Both the position numbers and the translations under genes were made by a program. A model generated the notes under the pieces. The model did no database searches. It was given only the letters and a program-made list of their open reading frames with translations, and was not told the DNA's origin. Below, piece by piece: positions 16,130 through 59,400 of a stretch of 64,000 nucleotides of DNA. The DNA is from Amoebophrya sp. A120 (lineage: Eukaryota; Protista; Dinoflagellata), in the NCBI GenBank assembly GCA_905178155.1, contig CAJINV010000003.1, positions 9,679,979 to 9,743,978 on the forward strand. The letters are read 5' to 3'. Every line of letters starts with the position of its first letter. Within the stretch, counting starts at the first letter, position 1.

Positions 16130-17510
16130 TTTGCGAATTTCGTTATAATATCTGCCCTTCTGTAAAGAGAAAGCAATGGACCCTGAAATGATTATATGAT
16201 CAAATTTCAGTAATGTTTGACGTCTGAACAACCAGGAGATTGATTTGAGGTAGCAATTGTGAGCATTTGCACGGATCAATGCGGCTTCGACTGCGTCAAC
16301 CTCGTCGCCGTTCGAGCAACAAATTTCCGTTTGCACCCAACTGATGGCAGATCCTCCCGCTTTCTTGTGAGGTAGCAAACTAGGATCACACGTTTTAATG
16401 ATCTCACGGCCATGCCGAGTGATTCTCAGAAGAATTCGTTCAGATCCAGAACTTCACAGCAGCATATTTCAAAGAGCCTCGGGCTCGAGTGATTGTGAGC
16501 AAAAATTCCAACATCGCCGACGATGATTTAAATCTGTTCGACTCCAAGTCTAAGCCATCATCGCAGAACGATCATCAATAACAAGCAGAACAGGTACATT
16601 TTCAAGAGGGCTCAAGTAATTTGTGGCTGTTCTTTCAGCTTTACATCCCTGTGACCGATGATAAGATCCAACACGAGCTTTTTTTTTCTTGCCATGTTGC
16701 TTTCGGATCCCCAACATGCTAAGACAACTCGTAGAAATTCTGATCCATGAAAAAAGACGTAGCATCTCTTGATCGTAGAGCTCGGTTCGATGATTCTCCA
16801 GGTTTCGTGACCAAAAAGTAGGTGGACAGAACGGAAACAAATCTCGCATCAAGTCTGCAGTACGACCTGGTGTATGTGCTCGACTGTCCACGATCGCTGG
16901 CTCTGCACACGCTGGTCTTTGGAGGGGAGTTCCAAATTGATTTTCACATGTAGCTAGCGGCTGTTCGGTTCCTCTTTCACCGACGTTTCTTTTCATAAAT
17001 GAAAACGCGTGTCTGCTCCTTGCGCGCTGCGCTAAGCCACTCTTCCGTGTCTGCGAAACGCTCTTGAGTGTCAAAGTCCGAAAAGCCTTCACTGCAGTGA
17101 TTTACGAGCCATGCTCACAGCCAACGCATTGACTTCTCCATGCTGAGTGGTTGATGGCGGTGGCGTCTTAGCACGTGACTACCAAGACGAACGCTTTTCT
17201 CCGCTTTCATCCCCGGGAACGTGACGGCCAGGCGCCGGCGCTCCGCTTGGTCGTCAGCGCCTGTCCGGAAAATCCGCGTCGCTCCAGGACAGCTCCGCGA
17301 GGAGTCGACGACTAAGCTCACTACTTTGCCCGTTCTTCGTCGCCCATGATTTGCTGGCGCAACGTTTCCAAGTTGTGCTTTGGCGGCCCTCTAGCGTGCG
17401 GCGGCGATAAGCTATCCCGACGGGCGAAGCGTTTGAGTACGTCATCCGTTGACTTCTGCGCACATTCGTCAACTACTACTACACAGCAGGCAGGGAGCCT
17501 GCGGGGCGCG

Positions 17511-34857: not shown

Positions 34858-35097
34858 CCGAGACGGGACCCCGAAAGGCGAGTTTACCTATACCTAGCGT
34901 GGGACAGAGAGGTTCCCGGGTACCCCAAAAACATGCATAAAAAAACTAGAACTTGATGCGCGTTTCAAATTCTTTAAATCCCCCGAGGCGGGACCCTTGC
35001 GGGCAAATTCGCATACCCAGCGAGGGAGGATGCGGCTCCCGGGTACCCCAGAAAAAGGGCACCTTCTGTCTGCCGAAACGGGACCCTTACGGGCAAA
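34858..35097. repeat. 2.3 copies of a ~74-bp direct repeat (CCGA..CGGGACCC...TCCCGGGTACCCCA); related fragment at ~25895-25921
   Basis: Units start at about 34858, 34983 and 35073. TTTTTCAGTCC..ACGGGACCCC is shared with about 25895. Confidence 0.75.
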
Positions 35098-35269: not shown

Positions 35270-35366
35270 TCGTCTGGTCCGCGGGCCGAGTCCCAGGTTC
35301 GCAGATTCTCTGGTCCGTAGGGTCCCTGGTCTGACCAGGATCCGCTCTCTGGTTTACCCAGATACC
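35270..35366. mobile_element. Right end of a MULE-like MITE (same terminus as at 53328 and 43145)
   Basis: CTGGTC(C) subrepeats ending GGTTTACCCAGATACC, compared with GGTCTACCCGGATACC at 53313-53328. Left end not clearly found. Confidence 0.5.
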
Positions 35367-35376
35367 GACTTCCTAC

Positions 35377-38300
35377 CTATCTGTCGCAACAAGGTGCAAC
35401 CGCGCCATCGGAAAACACTTTGAAGTCTCGCGATCTACCTTCATCGCCGTACCAAAAGTGCGGGCTGGGACTGCTGACATTTTCTGTCGAATCGCTTTGG
35501 CGCAGATGCGACTGTGGAGCGACGCGCAACAAAGGTCCAGGCTGACCCGGACGCGAGCTTCTTGCCTTTCTTGCGAGTTCGTTACGATAGAAGCCGAGCA
35601 GAGAACGCAGATCCGAGACGCTCGGGTGGATCACTTTTCGTGGCGAACCTGCTCCAGGATCATCTCGACCTGAACTGACCACAGTAGCGCGCGTGTTCTG
35701 CGTATCCTGCTGCCAGTCTTTCCTCTGCTTCTGCATCGAGAGTTGACGCACCTCTGCCGCCGAGCTGCAGCAGCCGGCGGTAATAAACGGTGCCCTGCTT
35801 GCCTCCCCCACCCTGGTGTCAGCGCTACGGTCTGCGTTTTTGTTTCTTGCTGGACAGTGCGCGAAGAAACACTTCCGCCACACGGGCGATCGCAGATGCC
35901 GCAAAACCGGCGACAAACTGCAGCTGCGCTTGTCAGGGCTTGTTCCTTTCTCTTCGACAATATCGCACGGCCGATCTATTTCTACTGGAAAAAAGTCAAG
36001 GCCGTGGGGCGGCAACATAGACAGCCCCGCCGAAGTATCGGCCACTGCCCTCGAAGGACTAAGCGGGATCGGCGATGAAAAACGTGGGTCGGGGTAGAAC
36101 TGCAGAAGCGTCGTCGTGCTCCCTAGTACCGTGTTGGGATAGGGGGCGTCGTGCCCCTGCGGTGCGGCCCGGTCTTCCGCATCTTGTGCTATCTCCTCGC
36201 TTGCGCTGCTCGTAACGGAATTTCTGTGTTTTGCTGACAACACCGAACGGGCAGCAAATATATTATTCTCCTCCTTGCGCGGCCGATAGTCCGGCTCCAT
36301 AAGCGGGTTTCTCCATGTTGCAGACGTCTCTGCCGCATGCTTCTGACAGTCTGGTGAAGTGGCTGAATTTGCAGTCGGGCTAAGAACCTGCATAGATGCA
36401 CTGAGCTCGGGAACACCGGGGGATGCGGAGAAGATTGTCCCGGCGCCGTGCCTCCTGAGCCGAGGAGTCGCCGCATCGGTTGAACTTGACCCTCCTACCG
36501 GACTGTCTTTAACGGCCAGGGGTGGCGCCTGCGTGGGCACGTCATCTCCACTAGTGGCAGTTCTCGCGGGGAAAGCTCCATCGTCCGGAATGGATATCCG
36601 ACTTGTAGCTGCATGCCACCCCGGTGCGTCATCCGAAAAAATTGCGTACAAGCGCTTTTTCGCACCTGCTCCTGTAACGTTTGTCATTGGCTGTGCCTCT
36701 ACGAGGAGCCGACCGCTTTCAAGGCCTGGCGACGCGAGCGCTGTGCCTAGGCGAGGAGGATATGCAGATCCTGGAGAGCGCGACCGGGTCGCGCTGCTTC
36801 CAGAGGAACGAGACCCTGTGACACGAAGGTGTGCGACTTGATCGCGGGCACCGGCGAGTACTCTTTGCTGCCTGGACTGCAATTCGCTCGTCTGTTGCTG
36901 CTTCTGCCACCACTTTCGCAAGTCCGCAACTTCAGGAAACGGCGACACAACTGCGTCCGACCGCTTCCGAAAACGGTCCTCCAGAGCGCGGACTGCAACC
37001 GACGGACGTGCAACGTCATCGGTGCTGCCCGTGTCAACTCCTGCCGCTGCTACCGGTTTGTTCCTGAGCGAGCTCATATTAGACCGGAAATCCGAAAGAA
37101 GTGCGCGCTTTCTGGTTCTTGAATAAGCGGGGCACGGTACGTATGTGGCCCACCGACCGGGACCTGGCGGCAGCCCCCCCCCCGCCCTCACTCTCGAAAT
37201 CCAGCACCGGCAAACGAAGGGGCGCGACACTGCACAGAGCCGCTGCCTGAGGATTGATGGCCGAGGCCAAAGCGTTGGAGCACGGCGATGCACAAGAGCG
37301 TCCGAGGCTCTCCGCCGCCGGCCGGCCTTAAAATGGGTCGGACGTGCGCGGGCCGATTTCCGGGCAAGAAAATTGGGGGGACCCCCGAATTGGCGCCTGG
37401 CCCGAAGCCACCGGAGTGCCGGCGTTTGATTAAGACCTTGAAAGCCGGTTCGGCTCCGCACCCTCGCAGCGGAGCGGCACGCAGTGGGGCAAAGCGGTAA
37501 GCAAGCCCCCTCGTTTTACCCCCTAGCTTCGGCGTTGCCCGCCGGCACGGGGGGGGCGACACTTGGGAGCGTTTTGTGCGTTTTTACTCCCCGGCGAAAA
37601 GGCTCAGAACTCGGCCACGCTTGCAAAGTTTAGGGCTCCAAGATCCGCCGAGGGCAAGAAGCCCCGGGCAAGCTTCGCCCCTTGTCCGGCGCGCCGTACT
37701 TGTTGCCCTCGCTGCTGCGTCCGAAGCCCACTCGAGGACCAGAAGGCGCGCACTTCGTCCGGATTCCTGGTCTAATGATGCGATCGATCGCTTGTCGCAA
37801 ACTCTCCGAGATAGACTCCAGTGCCCGGTGGTACATCAGGCGCGAGTCTTCGGAAGTGGACCGCATCTTTTCAAGCTCAACACACTGCTTGCCTGCGAGA
37901 AGCTCCGCCCTGCAGCGCTCCTTCACTAGTTGAGCCGCGTGCTTACGCGCCATATGCCGGAAAAACCCGAGCTGGATTTTGCGCAATGCCAAGTCCCGCT
38001 CCTGCACGATCACGGACCGGGGGCGTTCTTCGCCCGCACACAGGGGCCGGTGCGTCTCCGACCGGGTACCGGTTTCGAGGTCGGCAAAAAAACATTGCTC
38101 CTGGCGAGACTCCTCCGACTTCACCTTCGGTGGCGCCGCGACAAGTCGAGGCTTATCAGGTGCCACGAAAGGCGTGCTGCGCTCTGCCAACGGGTAGGGA
38201 TGTAATGTGCTGTTGCGTATTGACTTTTTTTGCGACGCCACTGTCCGGACCACGTGGCCGGTATTCAGGGCGGCGCGGAACGACATGAACTTCGACACCG

Positions 38301-40111: not shown

Positions 40112-43100
40112 TCAGTCATGCCGCTTGCGAACCAAACAGATACCGTTCTTGCAGCTTCTGAGCGTTTCCCACCGCCCTAGCCGAGGTTCCTTACCAACCG
40201 CACAGATGAAGAAACTTTCGCTTTCGACGATTTGATTCACCACGCCCGCTACGGGAATCGCTTCTTGTGGAACGAGCGTCTGCTTGGTCTGCACGCTCTT
40301 ATTCCTTCGACCATTGCACGCAGTCGCCGCACCAGAATCCAGCTTCTGCTGCTTTATTACGTCGTCACCTGTTACGCCGGCACTCTTTTCTCGGATTTTC
40401 CAGGACCTGAGGTAGCCATCGCTGCTGCCAGATAGAAGGTAGTTGCTGTGGCGCACGCATCCGAGACTGCTAATCCACATGCCGCCGTGCGCGTTTTCGA
40501 ATGACGCCTTGGGCTTGCTACTTTCTGCGGACCAGAGATGCAGGTGGCCGTCCATTCCGCCACTAGCGTAGGCACTACTCTGCAGCGCACAGACTGCATC
40601 TACAGAACTCGTGTGCTTTGCGAAGAGCAAGTGCGAATCTTGTGTAGTCTGCGAAATCGTACAGTTTTTGTTTTTGCCACAAAAAATTATATAGTTACGT
40701 AGCAAGAATGGTCCAAGCGTATAGTAGAGTCTGAGTGCGTGCGATCTGGCGCATTGCTATTTCATGTCTTTTCTAATGCGGTCAAAGAAGTAAACAAGTA
40801 CCTTCCAAAGTCTCGCAGACTTGTCGGCGCTTCCTGTGATCGGCCTGCTGGTCTGATTCAAGTCGATGCACGTGACAGCTTCGGTGTGCCCCAAGTACGT
40901 GTCAAGGCACGCAAAATGCTGCAGATCCCAGAGCTTGACGAGCTTGTCGGTGCCGGTGGTGAATACGTTCGTGCCATCGACCACCACGCCAGTAATGCGG
41001 GCGCCGCGCTGGTGCCCCGCGAGTTCCCGAATGCAACGATTCGTGAAAACGCGAGGGTCCCAGACTCGAACCAAGCTATCCCCCCCGACACTGACCAAGA
41101 GCTGCAGGGCCTCGCAAAACGCTACATCAAGCACCTCAGCATGATGTCCACCGCACGCAAAACTGTTGTGTTCGTTTATTCATTCTGTAAGTACCGTTGG
41201 TTACCACGACGCATTTTTGAAAAGTGAAAGTTGAAATATTGTACTTAAAATTTCGGGCAACAAGTTGACGTCCGACGTTGGTGTTCTCCCGCCAACATCA
41301 CTTTCAGGTCTATATATACACACAATTGTAAGCAGATTAGGATTACTCGCGGGGGCTGCCCGAGAAACGAACTTTCTTTCGTGATTCGACATCCCACTCG
41401 TAGACGACGCAATCCTTGCCGCCGGAATACACTCTGGTCTGGTCTCTTCTTACGCACGCGCTCGTACCTGTAGGTGTATGGACGCAACCCGTAAACTGTT
41501 TCGCTGCGGCTGCTAATCCAATAAATATAGGGACAAGAAAGCTGCAAAGGATTGCTGCTCCTTCTTGAGAAGGTTTTTTTTCTTTATGGCCCTCCTTCTT
41601 GAGAAGGACCCCCTTTCCGATACCGAAAAGGGGGGGGTAGGTGCAGTCGGTCGTCTGGCGGGCCGTATCCAGACATGGCCGGGTCCCTCCGGACCCGACC
41701 AGTTTTTCTTTTCGGACTTCAAAAATGTAAATCCGCAATTTCCCCGCCCCGGCAAAAAAGCGCTTCGTTTTGTTTGCTGCGGCTTCTCAGCGCGTCTCCC
41801 TTCTGCTGCGGTTTCTGTGGTGTGGCTGGAACAGAATGAAACACAACAACAGAAATAAATTTCTTGGGCGCGCGCGGACCGGCATACGGATGCAACAACA
41901 GAAAAGGCTTCAAGCGCGCGATGCGCGCGCGCAAACTGAGAAAAAGCTCGCGGCGCGCGCTGGTGCGCGCGCGCAGCGGAGAACATGCAGCGGAGAACGT
42001 GCCGCCCCAGTGGTCAAAGTGGCCGCCTCAGCTTTTCCAAATGCAGGAAGTGCTGAGATGGTCGCTTCAACATCCCGAGGGTGGTTGTCGTGCAATGCTG
42101 GGCTGCACGTAGCTGCCCCCTGGTGGTCTATTGCGTGGCAGCCCTGTTTTTGTGCAATAGAGCTACTTCACAGGAGAAGAAGCGTCGCCATGATGCATTG
42201 CGAACCACCTCCGTTTTTGAGCGGTAGAGCTGCTCCACAGTGGGTCTACGTCTACAAACTGCGCCCAAGCTACTGCGAAGCAGCTTTTTTTTTTGCGCAG
42301 TAGGTCCACGGCCTACGTCTCCAACCAAGTGGGGTGGCTATCAAGTTGGAGATGATTTACACCGGGGCAGCTGTGCTGCTGCTGGGCTCTGTGAAAGAAA
42401 GCCGCCCCCTTTGTTTTCGGAGATCGGGAGCCGGCTTTATTTTGAGAAGCAGAAAGCGCGTCGGTTCCGCTTTGCTTCCCTTGCGCTTCTTTTTTTATGA
42501 AAAGAATAAGAACAAACGAGAACTCGCTCGATAGCGTCGGCGCTGTGTACTTTGCGCACGGTAGTGCGCCTCGCAATCCATCGAAGCTGGCCGCCGCATG
42601 TGGCTGCCGTTGCGCTTTTTAAAAAACCAAGCGGCGAAAGGCGTTAGGCGCGCCGTGCCGTTGGGATTGAAATTCGCGATAGGTTTCGCGATAAACAGCC
42701 CCTTGATTTCGAAAAGGGGGGCGTGGGGGGGGTAAGCTCGGTCAGAGTCCCGCTTCTACCCCCCTTTTCGGTATCGAAAAGGGGGTCGATTAATCGTACA
42801 GCCTTTAAGCCCTTCTGAAGGCATGCAAAGGCGCGAACCAGGCGCCGCGCCCTGGGATCAGGTACCCTGGACCGGACCAGGTACCCTGGACCAGGTAACC
42901 CGGAGAATCAGGTGCCCAGTGAGCCGGGTGATCCGGAGTGTGGCGTCAGACGGCCACGCCGGGCGTCGGAAGGGCAGACCAGGCGGCGGACGACCAGGCC
43001 GGGCGGCAGACGGCCGGAGTGCGCGGCCGACGTGGTTGCTGGCAACCCAGTTCCCCGGGTACCCGGTCCACAGGGTACCTGGTCCAGAATAGTACCTGGC

Positions 43101-44709
43101 CCCAGGTGCCTGGTCTGGCCAGGGTACCTGGTTCATGCAGATACCTCTGAAGGTCGAAGGTCAAGACTTGGACCTTCAGAAGAATCAGCAAGAGACGCAT
43201 TTTTTTTGCTTGAAAATAGGATCGGGATAATCGTGAATATTTTAACCTTCTGGCGGTCGTGCTTTCTGCAGGTTTTTTTGAACTTCACAGTAAAAACGTG
43301 AAAAAGATGCAAAAAAACCTTCGGAAGGCCAAATCTTCAGAACGTTGAAAACCTTCAGACGGTCGAACTTTCTTGACCTTCAGAAGAGTTTGCAACTTTT
43401 TAGACAAAAAGCAAGCTTTCAGAAGGCCACTTTGATAAACCTTCGGAAGGTTCAAAACCTTCAGAAGGTTTTTCGCTTTTTATCAAAGTGCAGCAATTTC
43501 ATTCTGCCTCTTTCAAATATTCTTCAGAAGTTTTGCCACCTTCTGAACCCGACCTTCTGTAGATTCCTCTGAAGGCGCAAACCTTCTGAAGCATATCCAC
43601 GAGAGCGCAAATTCTTGAAAAATTCAACAACAATGCTGACAGCGACAGGCACTCACACGCATTACTTTCTTGCGCGATTGAAAAGCTCTGCCACCCGTGT
43701 CGGGCATTATCATATATAAAAAAGGCGGCTCCTGCGTTTACACTTGCAAAAGCTCGCGCTGCTTTTTGCCTCTGAGAGGCCGCCTTTTCGGCTGTTTTGA
43801 ATATCCTGACCTGATATTGGTTTTTCCTCTCTTTTCCGTGTTCGAGTTTAATTGTACGTCTTAAGTGCTGTCAGCTTGGTGAGAGAGCCCTGCCGTGGAC
43901 GGCGTCGCTAGTCTTCCAGCATCGAGAACCAGTCGACTTCTCGCTATCTGTTATCTGTTCTCACTAACCAAGTACAGAACATACAATGACTCCAAATGTG
44001 GCCCGGCAACAATCTGAGTAAGCCTTGCCTGCGATCGCGTTCACAGAACAAAAAAAGAGGACTCCACCATGAAAAATTAGTACATGTGCCCTGATGTCCG
44101 CGAGGAAAAAATATCGGCGTGTCGAGTTGAAAGGTTGCATCGGCGACTTGCGGTTTGTCAAAATCCTCTGCTACTCGTTTGCGTTTGCCAATGCTGTTGC
44201 TGTCCGTTCCCGCGATGGTTCGCAAATACTCTTTCGCGATTCGCAATCGCGTCTCATCGACACCCTCCTGCTCCGCAGGATCTTCGAAGAATTCTGTAGG
44301 ATTGGAAAAGATCGACCATATGATAGATTCGTAAGTGAGTGATTTTTTTGTATCATATGAATACAGTGCGTGCTCCCTGCTAGGCGAAAAAGATACTCCC
44401 AGGGTGCTTTCACGTTTCAGCGAGCAGATTTCTCCCGGAGGGCCTGGGCTCGAGGGCATCTCGTGTGGCCCAGCAGCCACCCGCTTTGAACCCGCGTGCC
44501 TTCAAAATTGCAGTCAGCCCAAACAGTCTCGAGCATCATAGTGAAGCCGACATACGTAGTGAGGTGTGTAGCTACGTGTAAATCAATATTGGAAGCTGTA
44601 GTACGTGTAAATCAATATTGGAAGGCAAGAACAAATTGTTACCGTCTTCGCTGTGAGGCGATTGTCGCTCGTGGTCGGCGTGGACTCCGTTGTGTTTGTG
44701 AACGACCAT
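40112..44709 (-). CDS. RRP9: U3 snoRNP WD40 protein Rrp9/U3-55K; exons 44709-44643, 44293-44084, 41467-41347, 41162-40802, 40648-40112
   Basis: Motifs ETRLRIAKEYL, RGHQGT|CTSA..VYSGGKDC, CGGH..VL, DKSARLWK, SGSSDG.LR.W and AVGKEPRLGRW. Four GT-AG introns restore one frame. The first exon is less certain. Confidence 0.9.
41607..42787. mobile_element. 1.18-kb element with ~32-bp TIRs that are themselves hairpins; no TSD
   Basis: GACCCCCTTTCCGATACCGAAAAGGGGGGGGTAG (41607-41640) is inverted as CTACCCCCCTTTTCGGTATCGAAAAGGGGGTC (42756-42787). Located in RRP9 intron 2. Confidence 0.8.
42811..43591. mobile_element. CTTCAGAAG-motif element, copy 2, interrupted by a MITE; may extend left to ~41550
   Basis: Numerous CCTTC(A/T/G)GAAG motifs, plus CTCCTTCTTGAGAAGG x2 at 41558 and 41592. 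Confidence 0.7.
42823..43145. mobile_element. 323-bp MULE-like MITE with GGTACC/CCAGG subrepeats and a 9-bp TSD
   Basis: TSD TCTGAAGGC (42814-42822) versus TCTGAAGGT (43146-43154). GAACCAGG..CCTGGTTC inverted ends and the terminus ..GATACC, as in 52717-53328. Confidence 0.7.
44573..44624. repeat. Tandem duplication TACGTGTAAATCAATATTGGAAG x2 in RRP9 intron 1
   Basis: Seen directly in the sequence, period 29. Confidence 0.85.
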
Positions 44710-46080
44710 TCTTCAATATCAAAATGAAATCCTTCCCCTAAGTGCGTCGGCGGCAACCACGAATTCGTGCTTTCTAGTGCTTCACATTGCAAAAAAATCG
44801 CACTATTGTTTGGCTACCAAACCCTGCATGCGCGCGCGCGACTGAGCAGCAATCCGATGCACGACATGCCATCGCGTCTTACGTTACCCTGCAGGGCTTT
44901 GGAAGCAAATCGCCCGTCTCAACTGAGTTTAAAATTCAATTTTGGAAAGCATATTAAAACTTTTTTGCATGAGAACAGAAACAGGATTATTTCTTTGGAT
45001 TCAGTCTGCTCTGACTTTAAAACGAAGAAGCCCTCCCAAATGTTATGGCCCGGAAAGGGCCTCCGCCAGACTGGAGGCCAAGGTCGTGCCCCATTTATAA
45101 AACAGGGACAATCTTGCGGCTTTTTGCGGGCCGTTGCCGTTAGATTGCTTTTTCCTGTCCTTCGGAAGTACGTGGCAACTTTTGCTAGGCCCCCCGGCAC
45201 TGCGCGAGAAACTGCCACACTAGGTGCCCCACGGGGTACGTGGGGAACCTAGTGCGGCAGTTTTCGTCTGCCTTTTCGCGGGAACGGTGGGCGCCTCAGA
45301 GGGGCGCAACACGTTCGCGGCTTGAAAGTCGCTGCTCGCGGTACATGCCAGGATCGCCGCCAGGATAGAACGCCCGGGACCCAGCAATATCCGTACACAA
45401 GGGACGCATGCTGCTTACCGGCCGCAGGTGGAAAAAAAAAACGAAAGACGCGGAGCAGTTAAAGGGGGCCGCACACCCAAATTTGGGCGCCGGCTATTAA
45501 GAAAGGCAGCAACAGGCGGCTAGTAGGGCACTGCGATTTTCCCCTTTGCGGGGAGTGCGACAAAAATCAGAACCCGGTAACCGGGGAAAATTGAGCGCGA
45601 ACAGCGCGCGATCTTGCAACTAGACGCGACGGCGCGCCCCGCTACCAGCCGGCGGCGGCATTAGTGAGAGAGAGGGGATAGCCCAAAAAATCGCAAGCCC
45701 TCCCGCCGTACGCCAGTGCCTGCGACTAGTAAAAAACATGCGCGAGCGGGAGCAAGGGGCCTCACTCGTATGGCCACCATAGCGGTGCTTTTTGCGCAGA
45801 GTGACTAGGGAAGCCCGCGCCGGTTGACCTAGTAGTGGCGGGCGGGAAAAAGACACGAACGCAAGGAGAAAGGAAACCACCAGCGACTTCTTTCCCTCTA
45901 AATTTACCCCAGGGTCTCCTTCCCGGAAGGTCAGAGCCGTCAAAAGCCCCGCAGCTGTGCGTTGCGTTTGTGCTGCTTTGCATCAACAAAATGAGTCGCT
46001 GCTTTCATGTCTTTTCATGCGATACAAATTCACCCGCCATTTTTCCGCCCTGCCGACTGGCGCGGAGCAGGTGCTCACTT

Positions 46081-48504
46081 TCAATACATAGCATCGGCGG
46101 TGGTTGTGAGTGGGACGACTGCGCAGTATTTCTTAAAATGCAGTCGCTTTTTGCAGCTTAACGAGAAGGTGACTTCCTGCGAATAAGACACGTCGTATCG
46201 CGGCACCGCTAGTGTATGTTCCTCGATCGCACTCACCAGCGTTTTTGCCTTACTTTGGTCTACTCGTCGTGCCTCCGGATTCTTCTCCTGCTCCTCTCTT
46301 CCGATCGTCTCGCAATTCACGTCACCAACGATATCACTGTCAGAACCAATACTGAGCAGGCAACTACGACTTTGCTCCGTGATACGGTTCGAAGTGGATC
46401 CGCTTGAAGATGCCGGGGGTACAAAGGAATCGCTGAAACTGGTAGTAGCTGCTGCACAAGTCAGAGTGTCCGCCGTAGTGCGATTGCTGTTGGATTCTTT
46501 TCTCCAAGTTGTGTGCTCGGCAGGCTCGGGCCCGCGAAATCGTCCCGCTCCCCAGGTATTAAACCTCGGAGGTTTATTCCCAGCCTCAACTTTTTGAACC
46601 TCTGGATGATGATGATGATGATCTCGAGCTCGACTCGGCACTAATCCCACCTCTGGACTTTGCTTCTCGGAAAAAAAACTGCACAAAATTGACAAACTGT
46701 TCTTGTTCACAGTTTTTTCTTCGCACGAACACAGACTCGATGATTGATCGTATCCTCCTAACTTGCTGACCGTCCAGTCGTAGCTGTGTTCTCCTTTCGT
46801 GCTGAGAATTTCCAAAGACTTGCTCTTTTCGCTTTCGAGGCGACAAGAGCGACTGGGCCTGCCTGAACTTTTGCACTCCACGCCAAACAAAAGCTCAGCC
46901 GTCGGAGAAAATGCGCTGGCACTGGCAGTTAAGCTGCTGCCCGCGTTAGAGGTCGACTTGCCCTGCACAGACCGACGCGTAACAGTCGCACAGCTTGATT
47001 TTCGTTTTCGTGTGGAGTTGTAGCAGTCGGACCCAAAGTGGGTGGCCTCTCGCTCGCGCTGCTGTGCTTGCGACCACGAGAGGGTACTTTGGTAGGCAAA
47101 ACCGCTCTTTCCCTTGCTCGTTGTTGGATTGTGAGAAGAGCTACCAGCTGCTGAGGCGGCTTGACGACCCGAGACTGAGACGCTTTCTCTCGCACCTGCT
47201 TTAGCTCCACCGATGCCGGATGGTGAGGCACGTACACTGTAACCGAAGGCTTGGCAGTGAGATGTGGACGCGCTCGATCCAGTTGTGCTCGTACTGGCGC
47301 CGCCAACTGAGTTACTGCTACCGCTCGACCCAGCCTTGAATACCGAAGATCCGCGAAAAGTGGCACTGGAACCGCCACGATAACAATCGGAACCGTAGTG
47401 ATTTTCCTGGCAAGGTCTTGTACAACTCCCAGGTATGCTGGTCTCGTATTTGTTGAGCGTTGGTCTCGAGTCCGGTCGTCTATTTCTATCTCTATGCTGC
47501 AGCACGAGCTCACCGGTTTCTTCCTCTGACGAATGACCAATGGCACTAGCGTTTCCAAAAATAGACCAAGCAGCTACGTGCCGCGTGGTCGTGAACTTTT
47601 CCGCCTGTTGCAGGCTTGGTTCAAGGCTTGAACCCTGTCTGACGTCCTGCTCGATCCCTCTGGTAGTCGACGAGGACCACTTTCCGCGTTGATCGATCAA
47701 AGTGCTACTGGTCCTCGCGCGCTTTACCTGTTCCCTGCCACTGTCATTGATAACGTGTTTGCTTGTCCCACGACTAATACTTAATTCCGTAGAAGACGAC
47801 GTGGCACTAGTACGATCGGTTCTTGAAGCAAGGCTCGCTTGGCTCTCCTTTCGGATTCGCTTTTGTACCGTTGCGAAATGCGACCAGACGGAACGGAAAA
47901 ACCCTAGAAGACCTCTTGCGCTTTTTGAGGATCCCGCGTTCGGCGGATGCCCTCGATGCGGCGCTAAGGCTGAGAAGGGACCGGCCTGTCGTGTACCACT
48001 ATTTCTGGAAGAGGTAGTCGACGAACCTCCTCTGCTTTTCAAAAAGTGGTTCTCAATTGAGCTGTCTGCTCTTTCCAGTTGCTGTGTCGCTCTTGCCGGT
48101 GGCCGCGCTGCAGTCCCGGATACAATTGCTAGGGGCTCTGCTTCGTCGTGTTTATTTTGATAGTTCTTGTAGACCCTGTTCCTGTTTGACGCTGTAGTCC
48201 GACAGTTTCGCCTTGGTATATCAGGATCGTCGTCCTCCTGCTCCTCCGCGGGGCCTGGCACCTCAATGCCACTGCGCCGCCCGTTCTGTCCTGCGTCCGG
48301 CCCGGCCGCCAGCCGCAGGAAGCTAAAGCAGCACGTGTCCGAAATCTTCGACGGGATCCCACTTGCCGTCTCTTTCTGTAGACGCCTACAACAATGGAAA
48401 CAAAACAAATACCGAAGACAGCCCAGAAACGGCCACTTCGAATTCCAATAGTCCCGAAGCTTCTGATAAAGATAAAAGTATACTTTAAGCTTCAAAAAAA
48501 TCAA
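46081..48504 (-). CDS. Ser-rich low-complexity hypothetical protein (807-aa ORF), probably the last exon of a membrane protein
   Basis: Long ORF on the gene-bearing strand with a hydrophobic, Cys-rich start. No family recognised. Confidence 0.65.
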   Translation of the reverse strand: MIFLKLKVYFYLYQKLRDYWNSKWPFLGCLRYLFCFHCCRRLQKETASGIPSKISDTCCFSFLRLAAGPDAGQNGRRSGIEVPGPAEEQEDDDPDIPRRNCRTTASNRNRVYKNYQNKHDEAEPLAIVSGTAARPPARATQQLERADSSIENHFLKSRGGSSTTSSRNSGTRQAGPFSALAPHRGHPPNAGSSKSARGLLGFFRSVWSHFATVQKRIRKESQASLASRTDRTSATSSSTELSISRGTSKHVINDSGREQVKRARTSSTLIDQRGKWSSSTTRGIEQDVRQGSSLEPSLQQAEKFTTTRHVAAWSIFGNASAIGHSSEEETGELVLQHRDRNRRPDSRPTLNKYETSIPGSCTRPCQENHYGSDCYRGGSSATFRGSSVFKAGSSGSSNSVGGASTSTTGSSASTSHCQAFGYSVRASPSGIGGAKAGARESVSVSGRQAASAAGSSSHNPTTSKGKSGFAYQSTLSWSQAQQREREATHFGSDCYNSTRKRKSSCATVTRRSVQGKSTSNAGSSLTASASAFSPTAELLFGVECKSSGRPSRSCRLESEKSKSLEILSTKGEHSYDWTVSKLGGYDQSSSLCSCEEKTVNKNSLSILCSFFSEKQSPEVGLVPSRARDHHHHHPEVQKVEAGNKPPRFNTWGAGRFRGPEPAEHTTWRKESNSNRTTADTLTCAAATTSFSDSFVPPASSSGSTSNRITEQSRSCLLSIGSDSDIVGDVNCETIGREEQEKNPEARRVDQSKAKTLVSAIEEHTLAVPRYDVSYSQEVTFSLSCKKRLHFKKYCAVVPLTTTADAMY

Positions 48505-50447
48505 TTAACAAGATGGAACCGAGCAATAAGTATCAGCAGCGTGTTGACAATATTCGCGCATGAGAGGAATGTGCTAAATTGTGTTTCCACAGTCACTGTG
48601 TGAGCGGGGCGTAATTTCGCGTGTATGAGTAAGTACGCAGCATAAGTCTGCGTTGAGTTGCAATGACATTCGGATGGCCATTTGATCCGCTTCTCGGGCA
48701 TATTTCTGATCTAGTTGCACTTGGAGCCTGAAAACAGCTGCACCACAAGGACAATCATGTCACACGCTTGCCAATAAAAGACACTGAGTGACTGGATATC
48801 GCAATGCGCTCAAAAGATACGATAATAGTGGCGACAGCCCGGCCTCGGCGCTTCTCGGGGCCGCAGTACGGCTCCTGCTGACAGTCGCCCCCACTTTTGA
48901 GATCCACTCTAACTTTTCACTTGTCAAGCGCTTAGACTGTCGCGAAAGTGCAATTATCCACGCTTTGTGCTATGTGTGCCGATGTGGTAAAACTACACAG
49001 CTCCCAAGCGGGCGTCCACTCAAGGACAGCCGAGAAATCAAATGGTGAGCCTTTTCGCGCGCCCAGCGCCTAGTTGTGCCAAGGCCGGCCACAAGGGCGG
49101 GGCGCAAAAGTTGCGGAGTAGAAAAGCCTTTCGAGACACGCGACCGCTCAGACTTTGTCGCTCGGCCACACAAATGAAACAAAGCCGCACCAGCTTGAAA
49201 GCGTTGAGTGGTTGCCGCACAATGCCCGCGAACAAAAGCGCTGGCGTGGAGCCCGGGCAGCTGCAACGGCGGGTCAGTGCTAACGCAAAGAAAAAACAAG
49301 GAGAGGAGCAGACGCGCGACCCAATTGATTACTGCGCCCCCCCTGCCGATTGAAGGAGGACGCGAGGTGCCTGGGTGGCAGGAGGAAAAAGGCACGCGCG
49401 GAGAAGCTGTAGCAGGAAAGAAGCCCGCGTGTTTCCAACAACTGGATTGGACCTCCTTCAAGCATTGGCGCGCCGCCTCAGTGCGACATCGTACTGCGAA
49501 GGCGGCCCGCCACGGTGCAAATTTTGCAGGCGGGCAAAGGGCTACCCTCTGGTGGGCTCGGTGCCGCCCAACGACAGAACCAGGCCTCGGCACTCCTTTT
49601 TGGCTGGTTATCTCCATGAAAAGCGCGCAAACATTATCATTGCAAAGCCCTGCAAAAGATTTGGTGCGACGACTCGTCTGCGCGTACCCAGGCCACGTCA
49701 TAGACAACAACTGTCATTTTCAAGCGTATACGCATGCGTGCGCTCTTTTCAACTATTCCTAATTCTCCTGATCTTCGGACTCGCGTAGGGTCAGCAAAAT
49801 GCAAAGTGCGATCCTCTACGCCTTGGCGTATCGAGCCGCTGAATGCCTCGATATTTGTCAACACTTTTCATGCGGTTCCGGAGCTGCTACCTCCTGTAGT
49901 TCAAACCTGTTAACGCGACTGATCTCAAATTTAAGGAACATCTTTTTTGGGTAAAACCCAATATTTTTGCAGTATCGATTTTTTTGACCTTCATTGGAGG
50001 AAAAAATCTTCGATGATTTAGGCAGTAATTTTTGATCCATATCCATCGAGGCTTGTCAATTTTCCGTGTCCACTTTCGAACCAGTGCATAATTTGCAAAA
50101 AAAAACGGTGCTGGCTAGCGAGATAATTCGAGCGATTCTTCTGAAAATTTTCATTCTTCTGCTGCTTATCATCGAAGGCTGAAAAACTAAACAATCTTCT
50201 GTAGCCGCACTCTTTCGTTTATTGATCCGAATTTTTCAACAGAGAAACTTTTGAGTCTAGTTACGCTTTTGATGGTGCAGAGCGTTTATAAACGCAGACA
50301 TAAGGGGCGCGACTGCGACGGGTCCAATGTCAAGTCAAGGAGTATCGCGATGCGGGGTCGCGCATCCAACTGATATCCTAGAGGAGTTCTTGTTCATGCC
50401 GTAAATGAATATCTCTGCAACAAATACTTCACACTTAATGATCTGAG

Positions 50448-53400
50448 TCACCTTGTCTCGCTACCGCCGCCTGCATCAGGTGCCATGCGCGCTGCGACGG
50501 TGTTTCCAATCGCAGGCGAGTCGCGGGCGGTAGTGAAGAGCTCGCCTCTTCTTCTTCGCGCAAAGTAGTCGCTTTTTGCTGCCTGCAGCTCGTTCTTGTA
50601 ACGGTTTACATCTAATCGCAGGTCCTCACACGACTTGTGATATCCGGAAAGCTCCTTCCCCATGGCCCGCATCTGGTTACTCTTGTCTCGCAGGGACTTT
50701 GTGTACCAAGTGAGCTGCTCAGACACTTCAGCACCCGGCTGGCGAGCCAGGATGTTCTTAAGCTGTACATAAAGCTTTTCCTTTTCCTGGATCAGCATGT
50801 CACACTCGATGACTTCTTCCGTTTTTGTAATGAGTCTACGCTGCAAGTTCTTAATGTTGTGTAGCAGCTCATAGGACTGCGGATCTGACCCTTCCAGTCT
50901 GCGCCATCGATGTACCTGTGGTTGGGGATTGCTATATATCCTGGCCCGATCGCCCATTGCAAGCCGCACTGTGTTTCCTTCATCGGCTAGTCTTTCGCTA
51001 AAGACAACATCACCAGTATTGATAGTAGAAAGAACAAGTCCTTGGACATCAGGTAGCTATCAGAACGATAGCGCTTACGCACAAAGAATTGCAGCTACGT
51101 TCATGGGGTTCTTCATTTCCTCTTCCAGGTGCTTCACCTTGCATTGTTCGTGTATGAGCTCGCGCTCGAGGCGGTGGATCTCCCGCTTGATGTTTGTCGT
51201 AGAACTCATCTGCCCACGACACCTTTGCACCTCGTCCTTCAACTTGTCTATCTGTTTCTGCATGTCGACCACAGCTGTGTTGTATAGTGACCGATATCGC
51301 AGCTTCTCAACGGGGGGGGCCTTGCTGCCGCCATACTACTATCTACAACAACAAAAATGCGCACTACGAAGGCGACTTTTCAGGTGAGTTCGTGATACGT
51401 CCAGATGGGCCTGTGAAAAGCGCACACAACTGTCGCATGAGATTTGAAGGACATCGAAGAGGCCAGCAGCTCCTCGACCAAGGGCAACAAAGCAAAGCGT
51501 GCTGATCTCATTCAGTACCCGCAGAGGCAAAAGCATGGTCGAGCGGGCTATCATATCAAAATCAATCTAAAGCCTGAAGCTGCAATCCATTAAGCGCTTT
51601 CGACTTGGATGAGTGCCTCATCATAGCCTTGATGAGAAGTTTCCAAATCGTTGCTCTTAAGGGACAAGGTCCGAGTCGTCTTTCAGGCGAGGACAGAAGC
51701 TGCGAAGGTGGAAAGCAGCGAAACGAAATCGCGAGCGAATTCGTCTCGACATCCATGATCACCATCACGGTCACCATCGACCGCACGCATTAGCCATCGC
51801 ATTACTTATATTAGAGACTTGAAGCAATATATATTGAAGAAAGAGCGCCTGACTAGCCTTGGCCCTGACTAACATGACCGGAACCCAGACACATCCGCCC
51901 GGGCACATATTAATTTGCACTCAAACATCGTCGCCTTTTTTTCGCGATCAACTGTGTCTAAGTCTAATACGTCCTTCAAAATACATTACGCTTCGTTACC
52001 GCTCCAGGAAAAGATGTGTAGTATGTTTTTTATATCCGACAAAAAAAATACAGTCGCAGACAGCTTTGTATTCGTTTTCGCCGTGAAGCATGTTTGACTG
52101 CTGAACCTTCAGTCCTTCGTAGAGTTTTTCAAGTTCTTCGTTGCGGCGAATGAGCTGTTTAGTCAAGACCCCGCGTTCGTCCACGACGCCCTTGCACTCC
52201 TTTTGCTGTGTCAGCTTTTCCGCCTCCGCAGTCTGGATGACTTTCTCAAGCTTCTTGGCTTCTTGTTGCTGTGTGTGAATGATGCCGGTCAGATTTAACA
52301 ATCGCTTCCTGCTGCGCTCCAGCGATTCCCTGATAGCTTCGTTCCCCTTCGCCAACTTTTGCTCTTCAAATTTTTCCCGAATTAGGTTGTGATCCTTTTC
52401 GCGAATTTCGTCCTTCACTTGAAACTTTCATATTGAAAAAAGCCTCCGTTCATTTGAGCAATATTGCTTTAGAAGTAGCATATACGGGATGGCCCCATAT
52501 GGCAACGCCAAAGCCTTCTCGCTCTTTATTTTGCGATGGGTGTATATCACAGCACGCAGATGCGTTTCCTGTTGATGCCCAGCACACCAGCACATGCGAG
52601 CGCTAGGTCATGCAGCTCTAGCTACCAGCTTCCCTGTAGTGACACCATAGTGGGTGAGTGAATGATTTACCCAACTGACGGTGACTGGGTTTTAATATTC
52701 ATTAGCAATATTTTTCGGTAAAGGTGTAGACCAGGGCCCCTGGGACTAGGGCCCCTACGGACTGGGGCCCGTACGGACTGGGGCCTGCGCGGTGTCTCGG
52801 ACTCTGGTGTCCCGGAATCTGGTGTGCTGGAGTCTGGATGGATCTGGAGAAGTTGGGGCATCGCTCTGCGGGCGTTTGCATTCGAGACGTCTCTCGTTAG
52901 CAGTTTGAGCTGTATCCACACTGTCCACTCGAGCAGTGCTGTCGCTGTTGCTGCGAAACATTTCGAATACAAAAGGCGCCCGTCGATCTGTGAGTAGTCA
53001 GCAGACTGCGCCACATATTACGTGTGACCTGCATACTTCCACTTCCTGGCCCGATAATACGACTTACATGACACGCATACTTGTACGCTGCTAGATACTT
53101 GTACGCTGTACTATTATTTGTACGCTAGTAGGCCCAGATTATTTCGACTTGATACGCCGCTAGACAGCTCCGCTTCCGGCCGCGCCTCGCCGTGTACCAG
53201 ATTCCGGGACGCCGTTCAGTCCGTAGGGGCCCCAGTCCGTCGGGGCCCTGGTCCATGGGGGCCCTGGTCCAGGGGCCCCTGGTCTAGGGGCCCTGGTCTG
53301 AGCAGGGGCCCTGGTCTACCCGGATACCATATTTTTCATTCTATTCCATATTCCGAACAACTCCTTTCATTCATAGCCCGCTTGTGCGCAGCAGCTCGAA

Positions 53401-56400
53401 ATGCCTGTGGCATCCGACAGGTGGGAACAAATACGTCCAGAGATGACTTTTCTTGGCCTTCTACCTCTCTCTTTCTGTCTCTAGCGTGCGAACGTCCACA
53501 CTCTTCCGAGAGGAGGCTTTTTTTCTTCATGATAGTGATATATCGTTGTGCATCACCTTGAACTGCACCTCCATGCCCGCGATTTCCTCGTTCGATGCGA
53601 TCAAGTTCTTCGAGTACATGTTTCCTGTGCAGTGAGTGTACAGCAGCAGCAATGACCATCAAGTGTAACCGAATTAAAGAGGACTGTTTTGCTGTATTTT
53701 CATTTGCGAACCAGAAACTAGTCATGCATATACTTTGTCCCGTTAAAGTGTGAGACTAAGTCCGGGTTTTGGGCTTGCGTTTTCCGAGGACCCGAACTCC
53801 CGTTGAGTCTCAGTCTGATTTCGATCACTAAGTTTGACCTTCAGTCAAAGGAAAAGCGCTGACTTGTTCTGAGTTCGCGCATTAGACGTAGACCTGAGTG
53901 TCAGTCTGAAAACGGACTTCGAGTACCCGAGGCCTGAGCTCCCCCGTCAGGCCCGGACATCTAAGTGGGAGTGAGACGTCTCACCACGACGACCGGTCTG
54001 CGAAGCGCGCTCCAAGCTCTTTCTTGCGCAAACGCAAAGGCACACACACACACTAAGCTATGAAACTTGGGCGAAGCTACCTTCTTCCAGGGCGGGCTTT
54101 TCGCACTCTGGTGCTTGCGATATGTCGCACCGCGCAGATCAGGAGCTGAGATATTAGGACGGGCGACATGTTGCAGCCGGGTGCAAAATTTCTTGTAGTA
54201 CGCGCTTGCTGCAGATAAAAGCATTGCGCTTCATGGCGTCTGCTGAGCGCTTATTTTTTTTTTGTTTTTCAGGTTTTATCGCTTCACTTCTTTTGTATCG
54301 AGCTAGCCAAGCCCAAGGGACAACGCATGTGTGGCCGAGTTCATTGCTATGATCAGACATGCGAAAATTCGTCTTTCATGATGGTACTCTACCGGCCGGC
54401 CAGAATGTGAAAAAGTGTAGCGCAATCCGATTCAAAGATATGTATGTAAGTATATGAATACGATCCGAAACCACCGCATCATAAAGACTCTTCTGGTTGG
54501 CCAGCTTTGTGTTGACGTCCGAAATTTGTTTGTGGATTTCGTGCAGCCGTTCATCACGGGCTTTGAGCTCCTCCAGGCCGTTGTAGTATTTTGCGTTCGC
54601 GACCGACAGCTCCACAGCCGCTGCTTCCCGAAGCTTTTTCGAATGACATTTAAAAACTCTTCCATATACAGAAGCGAAACTACTTGCGTGCTGGTTTGAT
54701 CTATATGTATATACCATAATGGACAAGACATTTCGGCGCTCCTCCCAAAAGCTTCGGAGGGTTAGACAGGTTCAATCAGCCTGTGCATTTTTATAGAAGC
54801 TCGTGAGAACTTCGCAGCATTTTTGTTGCTGCGCAAATCGCAGAACTCTCTTCCGCTGACTGGTTTCGTTAGTTTCAGTCTTTGCAACCCGGAGAAGGGC
54901 AAGGCTTCTGGTGGTTTTCACTTTCCCAAATTTCGTTGGTTTTTTACGATGAAAAACCGCCAACAGTTGTCTTTTGTAGATCGTTACAGGGTGCGCGTCA
55001 GCGTTTTTTAGCGCTCTGCTATTTTTCATACCCGGCAGTGCGCGCCCTTACTGGAAAACTGGAAATCTGCTAAGATCCTAAACCTGACCATGGTGGACAC
55101 GGCTACGAATGGCCAGCAGAAGCCTCATATATTTTTTTTTGCGGGGTATCGGAACATGCGGGGCAAAAAAGGCACAAACACCCCTACCCCCCAGGGGGTT
55201 TGCCGGGCTTTGTCTTTTTCCCCTGCCATGCCCTCCGCCCGCCGAGGCGCCGGCCCTGGCTGGCACTTGCGCAGCGCTGCAAGAAGAGCAATGGAAGCGC
55301 CCAGCTCATACGGGCGCCGCTCTTTTCAAGCGGCGGCGCCCTCCGTGCTCTTTTTCCGGATATGGCGCGACTCACTTCCCACCACAGCACTCCCCGGGCT
55401 TTCCGAGGCTGCGGAAGTAATTACTTCGAAGACGGGGGGCAGCCGGGGAGCCAAAACCCGCTCCCTCAGACCCCGGCTTCCTCAGCGCGCGCCGCTTCCC
55501 CTCGTCGCCCCAATTCCCCAAAGCGCTTCACTGACTCCGCCCTCAAAGAAAGGAAACCGCGCGCGGCCGCCCGCTAGCAGGCCACGTTCTGCATCCTCGG
55601 GCGCAGATGCCACCCAAGGGGGCGAGAAGGAGCATACCCAGCCGCCCGCCTGCTGGCAGACACGCGGGGGGGGAGAAATGGAACGAACCGCGGCGCGCAG
55701 GCCTGTAAAGGGGCAAAGCGGTTAAGGGTTCGCTTCGGCGATTGGTCGACAACTTTCCTGCTACCCAGGGGAAACAGAAAAAAAGAAGCGGCTAAAACGG
55801 GCGCAGTGGCTGACGTCGTCGCGGGCCTCGCAGGTGAGTATCTGCCTCCGAGCAGTGCTCCTCTTTATATGGTAATGACGAAACAGATTGACACGCTCCG
55901 CCTGAAGTTTGTCCAAACGGCCCCCACTTGAAAGGCTTTCGGGGTGCACATCCAGAACGAAGCGCGGCGCCCTTTCGTGCTGCGGAAATGCTGGCGAAAA
56001 ATGTCGCAGGCCGGTGGCTATCTGCAACGAAGTGCCTGACCTTTGCAGCAGCTGCAAAACCTCGACAAGTATGGCGCCCCGGTACCTCTCCGGGAGAGGC
56101 CTCGAGGGGGGTCCCTCCGTCGTTAGCCATGGCCAGCGCTCACCGGGGGACGGGACGCGCCATACTCAAAAAGAGCGGCCCTCTTTGATCTCGCAGCGCC
56201 TCTAAGTATTCGCGATCCCTCAAGCAAAGCCGAGGCCCTTCGGCCCCCCATCTACTATTCTGCGCAACAGTTGGGCGACTCAAAAACACCGAGCCGGAGA
56301 GAGAGCGAGCCCAGCGAATCTCTGTGGCGCTCCTTCCTTCTTCAGCACGCAAGGGGCGGGGCGCATGTGGAACACGGCGGAAGCAGACCGGGTGGTGGCT

Positions 56401-59400
56401 GCAATACGCGGCAAACCAGAGAAATGCGGGGTAAAGGGCACCGGCCGCACGAACGAAGGAGGGGCGTGGGCGCCAGGCTGCAGCGGGAGAAAATCGGCGG
56501 GGCCGGGCCTCGACGCCCCTAAACGCCGAACTCTGCCCCCTAGACCCTAAACAGGCGTCGTCTCTCTTGCATCGCCTCCCCGCCGACAAGGAAGTCGCGT
56601 AAAGGGTGTGGGGAAAGGAGGCAGGGGAGGTGCGCGAGTGAGGCGCTTAGGGAAATGGGTCACGGGCTTGGGGAAGTGAGTCGCGCCTTTTCCTCTATTT
56701 TCGGTCCGGCGTCCCCAATCTCAGACGCCGGGCGCTCGAGACCAACGCCGGCCGCTTCCGATTTTTTCGGCTCGTTGCGTCGGCTCTGCAGGCGGCGAAT
56801 GAGAGCGCAGCGTCCCGAATCGATGGCAATACTGCCCTGGGCGCTAAGTTGTTCAGTAAGAACCTCCGCGAGATAAAACACCTGCGAGCACAAAGGTCAT
56901 TTTCTCCCACAAGACGTCAAAAAGCTAGCCAATTACTAGGCCGCTGCTGAATGATCCTAATAAATTGGCGCGAGTGTTGTCGGGACACAGGGGACACGCG
57001 GGGGCGCCGCTTTGTTCGCGTGGAAGCCAGGCGTCTGCCCCCCCGGAAACCTCAGCCGCGCGCTTCTGCGTAACACTCCGCCGACTGCTGTGGAGTGCGG
57101 CTCCTGCCCGTGTGGCCGATGTTTGGCCCCGCGAAGCGGCCGCGGCCAGGCTGACGCAGTGCGCCTTTGCTCCTCGGCCGCAAGGGCTGCCAAGTGTTCG
57201 GCGCCCCGGCGCTGCTCTGCGCCTGCAGAGCGTGCGTGCCGTCGCCGGTCGGGCTTATGCTTGTCCCCGGAGTACTGCAAGCGTACTCCCAGGGCCGTGG
57301 GGCGGTGTGCTTTACCGGAGAACACCCCGCGGCTGTTCCGGGGACCCGGGTGGGGGACCAAGCCGCCAAGTTCTGCCCGGCTGCGCTGTGTGTCTCTCTG
57401 TGCCCCAGTCCCGAGGCATGCGCGGGGCTATTCTCGACATGGGGCCCGCGGCTTCGCCCCTTCGCTAGCAGTAGGCCGGCCCGCCCAGGACACGCCCGCG
57501 GGGTGCGCCTGCTGCAGGGCGTGGCCACTGCTGCCCTGTGTTCGGTCCACCGGTCTGGCTTTCCTACGGCCCGCCCGGGCGTCCGCTGGGCGCGCTTGGC
57601 TTGAAAAGCAGGCGCGGTCAAATGCGCAACAATTGCGACGCTGGGCCCGCAGGGCCAGCAACGATTCCGACAGACCGGGAGACCGCTGCCGCGGGCAGGT
57701 GCCGCGTGGCATAGTCGAACTCGGTCGCGCGGGCTGCTCGCGTCGGCGAAACCAACGGAAAGCCCAGCCCCACCACGGTCCTGCGCTGCGTAACAAATCG
57801 CACCAAGCTCGGCGCGGGGGGACCTCGGGCGGCTCATTCTGTCGCTATGGAGGTGGGTGCGCAGCTTGTGCCCTCGGCGATTTTCCCCACTGGGGCCTCG
57901 CTGACTCACAGCAGGGCTCTGACGACGCTGTCGCTTTTGGGGCGCGTCGCTGACGCTGGTGCGTGGTACATCTTCCGACTTTTTCACACCAAAAGAGACC
58001 GGCTGCGTCGCTTACTGCGGCCGTGTCTGTTTATGCTACAGGTCCTTCCCCGCTGGGATTCCGGTGACCAGCCGGAGTTCCAGTTCATAAATGAGCACAT
58101 GCACACACTCGCCTACATACAAATACTAATGAATCGGCCGAGTCCCGACCATGCATCGACGGAAGGAAACCCAGCATTTTTTGAAACACAAGCCTCAATG
58201 CGCGGAGGTGCTTTGCAGGACCGCTGTGAATCGAAAGCAGTCGCTCTGTAATTGGGATATGTATTTGCAATCAGATACTCCATTTGCAATATCTTTTTGC
58301 GAAAGCGCTGTGCTTCCACTTTCCACTTTGCGATATCCTTCTTCAGCTGTGCGACTTCCGTTTCCTTGTTCCGAACCTGTTTTAATTACTTTCAGCTGCA
58401 CCAGTTGCAGTTCGGGTGAAGGTGTTGATCTAGCCTCGGTATAACACGCCAGTCCGAAAAGTACGAGGACCTCTTGGATCGCGCAAAACGACCGAAAACA
58501 TGGACTATGCCCAAAAAAGAGAACTCACAGAATCGACGGCGCTTGTCTCTCTGTACGATGAAATGAGCAGACGAAAAAGCAAATCTCTTGAGACTCATAC
58601 GCCAAAATATAATGGATACCAGTTCTATTTGCTGCTTTGTCTTCTCATCCGCTTTGACAACATTCTTGTTGAGTATGTCCCGCCTGTCATCCGTGGGAAA
58701 AGTGTACACAATGCAAATGCATCATCATACTCGAGACGTAGTTCTTTCGTCCACGCCTGGAACCATTCCTGTGCTTCACATCCTAGAACAGATGTTATTC
58801 ATTGCAGGTCATTCTATTTCTGCTATCTAATCGCAGGCGCATATAAGTTGCACTTGCATACTGAAGTATGTATATAATATCGCGCAAAGACCGTTGGCAA
58901 TTTAAGGTGCTTTGCATTTGGACTTGGAGGCTTCGCCTTGACGGAGTCAGAAAAATAAAAATAGAAACTGCTGCAACATAGACTTGCACGTAGCACAAAT
59001 TTTCTCCCTGCGATACTCGCGCAAGAGGCTTTCGATTCTCTTCTGTTCCGCGTCGCAGTCTTTTCCCAGTGTTTTCCTCTGCTCCTCCGCCTCATAATTA
59101 TGAAAGTTCAGAAGCCCCGCTGACCTCCTTTGGCTACAAATTCGGTTCCGGTCAAACTACGCATTCGATTCGGCGAACAATAGCAAGGCTGTCTCCTGGG
59201 TTCATACAAACACGCCTACAAAGGCCCCCCGCAAGAGACGTCGCGCCTTGCAAAAAAAACTATACCAACGGCCGTTCCCCGAACGATCAAAACAGAGCAT
59301 CCGTCCGTAGGCTGCTTTTCCCCTCCATTCTGCGCGCTCTTCTTCCACCTCATCGTTCATGAGATCCAATTCGGACAAAGGCATACACATCGCATATATG

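Follow-up and report, generated by a model that had tools for sequence, protein, structure and literature searches.

More than 60% of the introns of Amoebophrya sp. A120, a parasitic marine dinoflagellate, are reported to be non-canonical (about 65% of those with RNA support; PMC7789003, Farhat et al. 2021). According to the same report the introners of this strain carry inverted and direct repeats, singletons being recognised besides the repeated families; 9 of the 9 predominant non-canonical end pairs in its Table S4 have T at +2; U1 was undetected in A120, the other small nuclear RNAs (snRNAs) being present; putative transposases are described there for strain A25 only; the intron analysis is limited to 40-1000 nt; and the splicing mechanism is left unsettled. 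A120 introners have since been assigned to retroelements and to diverse DNA transposons with terminal inverted repeats (TIRs) (Gozashti et al. 2025, PMC12130899), and such introns are described as restricted to A25 and A120 (PMC12005148, PMC11453091). The intron analysed here, 1114 nt long, interrupts the flagellar gene CFAP58, encoded on the minus strand of a 64-kb stretch of A120 DNA (the window), and belongs to this class of introners and non-canonical introns as PMC7789003 presents it. It contains a miniature inverted-repeat transposable element (MITE). The literature searched yielded no solved mechanism for A120 non-canonical introns and no report of a MITE nested in one, the word "nested" being absent from the main text of PMC7789003.

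We consider it moderately probable that this is a lineage-specific, likely transposon-derived intron, exactly removed despite containing a younger MITE, and that the removal is most likely the work of a spliceosome that reads a relaxed 5' signal, a terminal stem probably helping to place the 3' cut.

The CFAP58 intron and its joint

The gene was identified through a match of Pfam family PF21771 (CFAP58_CC, E 1.2e-20) to the minus-strand exon 52052-52421, the top database match of which is an 864-aa protein, P0001, of 100% identity and named by NCBI as an Amoebophrya sp. A120 protein; ten exons of the window map exactly to its residues 305-864. Across the intron site P0001 reads KVMHNDISQVKDEI. 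The corresponding part of P0002, a transcriptome protein from a related Amoebophrya, reads KVMYNDIGQVKDEI, without a gap, and both proteins contain the residues VMHNDI. The features of the site are:

53536..53624, minus strand: CFAP58 exon upstream of the intron, ending ...VMHNDIS (protein map, joints 53623/54461 and 52420/53535)
52422..53535, minus strand: non-canonical intron, 1114 nt, ends CT..TT (joint in contigs of runs X3, X4 and X5)
52421-53534, minus strand: equivalent register of the same intron, ends TA..TC (one-base slide of the joint)
52052..52421, minus strand: CFAP58 exon downstream of the intron, starting QVKDEIREK (Pfam match, protein map, RNA-like joints)
53555..53556, minus strand: unused GT of an in-frame canonical alternative (sequence; no such joint listed in the RNA-like runs)
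52425..52426, minus strand: unused AG, lying 3 nt short of the actual 3' cut (sequence; no joint)

Runs X3, X4 and X5 come from one sample and, none being on record as RNA, we treat them as such because their contigs skip GT-AG introns exactly, ten of them in this window; contigs lose rare isoforms and cannot measure levels. Contigs of all three RNA-like runs with cover link 52420 directly to 53535 and so leave out 1114 nt (depth 229 in X3, 158 in X4 and 117 in X5); the message then reads I-S-Q across the joint. The removed length agrees between these contigs and the mapping of P0001, which bears out the original prediction, made from the letters of the sequence, both in its naming of CFAP58 and in its requirement for removal of 1114 nt. 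Its view of the ends fared less evenly: they are indeed non-GT, but the registers that it listed (TC-AG, CA-GT, AC-TT and CA-AG) are not the real ones. The joint slides by one base only, giving CT..TT or TA..TC. Of the direct repeat of 3-5 nt that overlaps the borders of A120 introners, what is seen here is TCA at both intron borders, one base out of register. The canonical alternative that it had noticed does exist: GT-AG removal from 53556 to 52425 would take out 1132 nt in frame and delete the six residues VMHNDI. No run lists such a joint, at least among contigs, from which rare forms can be lost.

The DNA-like run X1 has contigs, 42775-52745 and 53301-54199, that continue over the two intron borders with no change of sequence at a flat depth of 42; the 1114-nt joint is absent among the joints listed. 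Since the assembly may itself have been made from X1, this run is no independent support for its sequence. From the metagenome run X9 came short pieces only, none spanning the intron site.

Unspliced RNA-like contigs differ between neighbouring introns: the canonical intron just upstream (53625-54461, minus strand) is covered by an unspliced contig (depth 34 in X3, 16 in X4), unlike the 1114-nt intron, which is nearly without such cover, as far as contigs can show.

Comparison with orthologues, examined at 9 of 39 loci fetched, located the insertion-free site that the original prediction had looked for. All nine loci continue without an intron across residues 515-540. The closest relatives, L001 and L002 (71% identity, genomic), are uninterrupted there and carry GT-AG introns of their own, one at the position of the A120 intron after residue 407; six more distant loci and the ninth, L025, are likewise uninterrupted. 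Because the site is empty in these relatives, the A120 lineage most likely gained the intron, on the sequence comparison.

Terminal repeat and nested MITE

An inverted repeat bounds the intron, and a second, younger-looking element lies within it:

53512..53536, minus strand: 5' arm of the outer inverted repeat (TAT + 7 nt + AAA motif from 53534)
52424..52447, minus strand: 3' arm of the outer inverted repeat (3' cut 3 nt beyond the base opposite +1)
52717..53328, no strand assigned: MITE, 612 bp, 59% GC, multi-copy (imperfect TIRs 52717-52742 / 53303-53328 with subterminal repeats)
52708..52716, no strand assigned: left copy of a 9-bp target-site duplication, a perfect match to the right copy
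53329..53337, no strand assigned: right copy of the duplication, a perfect match to the left copy
53322..53327, minus strand: donor-like hexamer at the sense-strand start of the MITE, identical to the opening 6 nt of the canonical intron at 58619

The outer repeat spans 1113 nt, as predicted, with 20 of 25 columns identical and a perfect core of 12 bp. Local alignment of the intron's ends gave p about 0.001, and their duplex (-22.3 kcal/mol) p 0.002 in 500 shuffles. The inverted repeat of 8-20 nt that joins the ends of A120 introners is thus present here, as is their starting motif, TAT followed by 7 nt and at least three A, read from 53534 downwards.

The MITE and its perfect duplication, also foreseen, are well defined. 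Its TIRs of 26 nt (85% identity) are extended by subterminal repeats; the chance of a perfect 9-bp duplication at a fixed place is about 1e-5; loose contig ends of other copies fall at exactly 52717 and 53328; and summed X1 depth over the element is 165-343 compared with 42 on its flanks. The X1 contigs enter it by only 28-30 bases, just below the bridging threshold, as expected of an assembly graph that breaks at a repeat. Taking away the MITE and one copy of the duplication would leave an outer intron of 493 nt. A 9-bp target duplication is a hallmark of Mutator elements, and the nested MITE, judged by its sequence, is a candidate Mutator-like one, alike in its TIRs, 9-bp duplication and multiple copies and in being too short for a transposase. 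Diverged matches to the end of the MITE lie at 35310-35366 (77%) and 43046-43145 (69%).

The exact 1114-nt joint in the RNA-like contigs means that the intron is spliced with the MITE in place, as had been supposed. Folding predictions have the MITE form a self-contained structure, and the outer-pair probabilities are consequently equal whether it is present or not; its presence is therefore no test of intron length. X1 contigs run unbroken through the outer parts of the intron, so the outer element has no near-identical copies and is thus probably older than the MITE.

Neighbouring introns and the mode of removal

Between 34200 and 59400 of the window, RNA support exists for five non-canonical introns, namely the 1114-nt intron and these four:

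54638-58278, minus strand: GT..AA, 3641 nt, in CFAP58 (joined in X3 and X4; no significant end repeat)
59095-59310, minus strand: CT..TA, 216 nt, in CFAP58 (no slide, little end pairing)
37074/5-37775/6, minus strand: 702 nt (43-column end repeat, duplex -44.9 kcal/mol)
44713-46186, minus strand: TT..GA, 1474 nt (no slide, decayed end repeat)

The joint 59094-59311 is built from a loose contig end and the protein and is not among the joints listed; the 702-nt intron is probably a young introner. Significant end repeats were found in two of the five, the 1114-nt intron and 37075-37776. The other three have none (local alignment p 0.87, 0.13 and 0.90; duplex p 0.06, 0.77 and 0.03, the last borderline), yet are joined exactly. 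Each of the five admits a register with T-A at +2/+3, an N-T-A start for which the chance, calculated post hoc, is about 6e-7, and the 11 canonical introns examined (10 from RNA-like joints, one from protein only) all start with GTA. Summed over the five, end pairing peaks where +1 faces -4 (offset 3), at 25 of 40 positions compared with 5-16 elsewhere; the canonical introns examined have no such peak.

In the account we favour, an old inverted-repeat element would have inserted at codon 527 of CFAP58 and become an intron because its end resembles a 5' splice site; the younger MITE would have jumped in later, to be tolerated by folding into a closed domain. Cutting would be by the altered A120 spliceosome (U1 undetected, other snRNAs present), reading a relaxed 5' signal in which N-T-A replaces GTA, and the decayed terminal stem would probably help to place the AG-free 3' cut. 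A relaxed spliceosomal 5' signal is suggested by the resemblance of all five N-T-A starts to the canonical GTA. We infer the role of the spliceosome, the history of insertion and the tolerance of the MITE through folding from a small sample, and offer the chemistry as a proposal. Tentatively, and as something possible rather than probable, the account may extend to a single rule for A120 introns: a U1-less spliceosome would read N-T-A with +1 free and cut 3-5 nt beyond the base of a stem of transposon origin, needing no AG, even after decay of the stem or insertions of a kilobase. Such a rule would open the splicing of these introns to testing across the genome.

Several observations weigh against this account. 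The set of five is small, and three of its members have two equivalent registers, two being unambiguous. The N-TAT start may have been inherited from the terminal repeat of the element and not be a splice signal at all. Two introns contribute most of the offset peak, and among the remaining three offset 3 does no better than -4, at 11 of 24 each. Reading the 702-nt intron (37776/37775-37075/37074) in the N-T-A register puts its offset at 5 instead of 3; for that intron the N-T-A rule and a fixed-offset rule are incompatible. The folding model predicts the terminal stem of the 1114-nt intron at only about 0.25, in competition with a local hairpin. Finally, a second copy of the outer element was not found within the 64-kb window, so that the element's transposon origin, though likely, has as its basis the end repeat and the empty site in relatives.

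The original prediction had made splicing depend on the paired ends rather than on internal sequence or length, and its fullest form would be a structure-guided, possibly non-spliceosomal machinery that makes its cuts at the foot of the terminal stem and is indifferent to the sequence of the ends, a mode of removal put forward for the nonconventional introns of euglenids. The significant end repeats of the 1114-nt intron and 37075-37776, the pairing peak at offset 3, the report of undetected U1 (PMC7789003) and the neglect of nearby GT and AG would all suit such a machinery, but three of the five introns are joined exactly without a significant end repeat, the N-T-A start is common to all five, the terminal stem is as weakly predicted as stated above, and the predicted outer pairing is the same with the MITE, so that length is not probed. 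We consider pairing alone unlikely. What survives of the original prediction as a whole is a non-canonical, inverted-repeat-bounded intron spliced with its MITE inside; dependence on paired ends is not supported. Removal in two steps, like that of a twintron, with the MITE spliced first from its donor-like start and the 493-nt outer intron afterwards, draws on the identity of the MITE's starting hexamer with a canonical donor of CFAP58 and on the paired MITE ends; it appears quite improbable, for the hexamer is used by no joint listed in the RNA-like tables, none of the listed joints connects 53327/53328 with the 52710-52717 region, and a low-depth X3 contig (53299-53429) spans the border between MITE and outer intron.

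Very improbable, too, is that the 1114-nt joint reflects an insertion-free allele, a paralogue, excision at the DNA level, or editing of the ends to canonical ones before splicing. Possible editing at 2-4% of intron borders is reported in PMC7789003, but three changes at two ends would be needed here, and the first three possibilities are opposed by the flat single-copy depth of the X1 flanks, the unchanged contigs over both borders and the lack of a listed joint. As for canonical GT-AG splicing from 53556 to 52425, the site pair is present and in frame, but the 1114-nt skip is the sole form in the contigs of all three RNA-like runs with cover, P0001 and P0002 retain the six residues, and the donor would be GTG, compared with GTA in all 11 canonical introns examined; it is refuted as a major form and its probability is close to nil. 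Though real, the nested MITE favours no one splicing mechanism: the canonical intron 41468-44083 also contains a multi-copy inverted-repeat element, and tolerance of insertions therefore does not separate them.

That element is a high-copy repeat (41607-42808) with a 29-nt inverted repeat of 97% identity; many of its other copies end near 42804-42808, and no target duplication was found. The search for duplication-flanked elements in the other long introns gave none convincing, though at 9 of 12 end bases it was insensitive and missed the known MITE too. Joints at 34868, 34871, 52857, 53083 and 53084 were dropped as introns: they occur also in the DNA-like run X1 and lie within repeats, as other copies. 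The interior of 54638-58278 is GC-rich, with an internal 23-nt inverted repeat (55358-55380 / 56671-56693), and the host of 44713-46186 is a WD40-repeat-like gene whose RNA-like contig extends from 48618 to 39866. Rfam gave three matches, all far under the gathering score. Open frames at 14605-16453 on the minus strand presumably resemble RACK1 exons.

Significance and relation to known systems

As a single locus the intron is of modest weight, an ordinary example of a published class in its type strain. It is nevertheless a clean worked example, in that the gene is conserved, relatives have the site empty, the joint is exact and the in-frame GT and AG close by are ignored, and it extends the class past the previously analysed range of lengths. 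A useful by-product is the hint that T-A at +2/+3, as in canonical introns, also marks the non-canonical 5' ends. If this were true genome-wide, a relaxed spliceosome would be favoured over a separate structure-only machine, and gene prediction in the Amoebophrya lineage would improve.

With the A120 introners of PMC7789003 the intron shares its strain, non-GT-AG ends, an inverted repeat at the borders, the TAT + 7 nt + AAA start, a strain-specific position and a predicted hairpin. It differs in its length, 1114 nt being beyond the 40-1000 nt window of that analysis, in its nested MITE with a 9-bp duplication, and in having no other copy of the outer element in our window. In that report the position of the splice sites with respect to the hairpin is said to vary, whereas our five introns hint at an N-T-A register at the 5' end; the N-TAT register may already be visible in its Fig. 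3 logos and Figs S19-S25. Like the introners of PMC12130899 the intron points to transposon-derived gain in A120, but those belong to recent multi-copy families and the outer element here looks old and single-copy. The nonconventional introns of euglenids (PMC3935182), an unrelated lineage, are similar in that variable non-canonical borders are joined by RNA structure; in the introns examined here a GTA-like N-T-A persists at the 5' end, and the pairing has often decayed.

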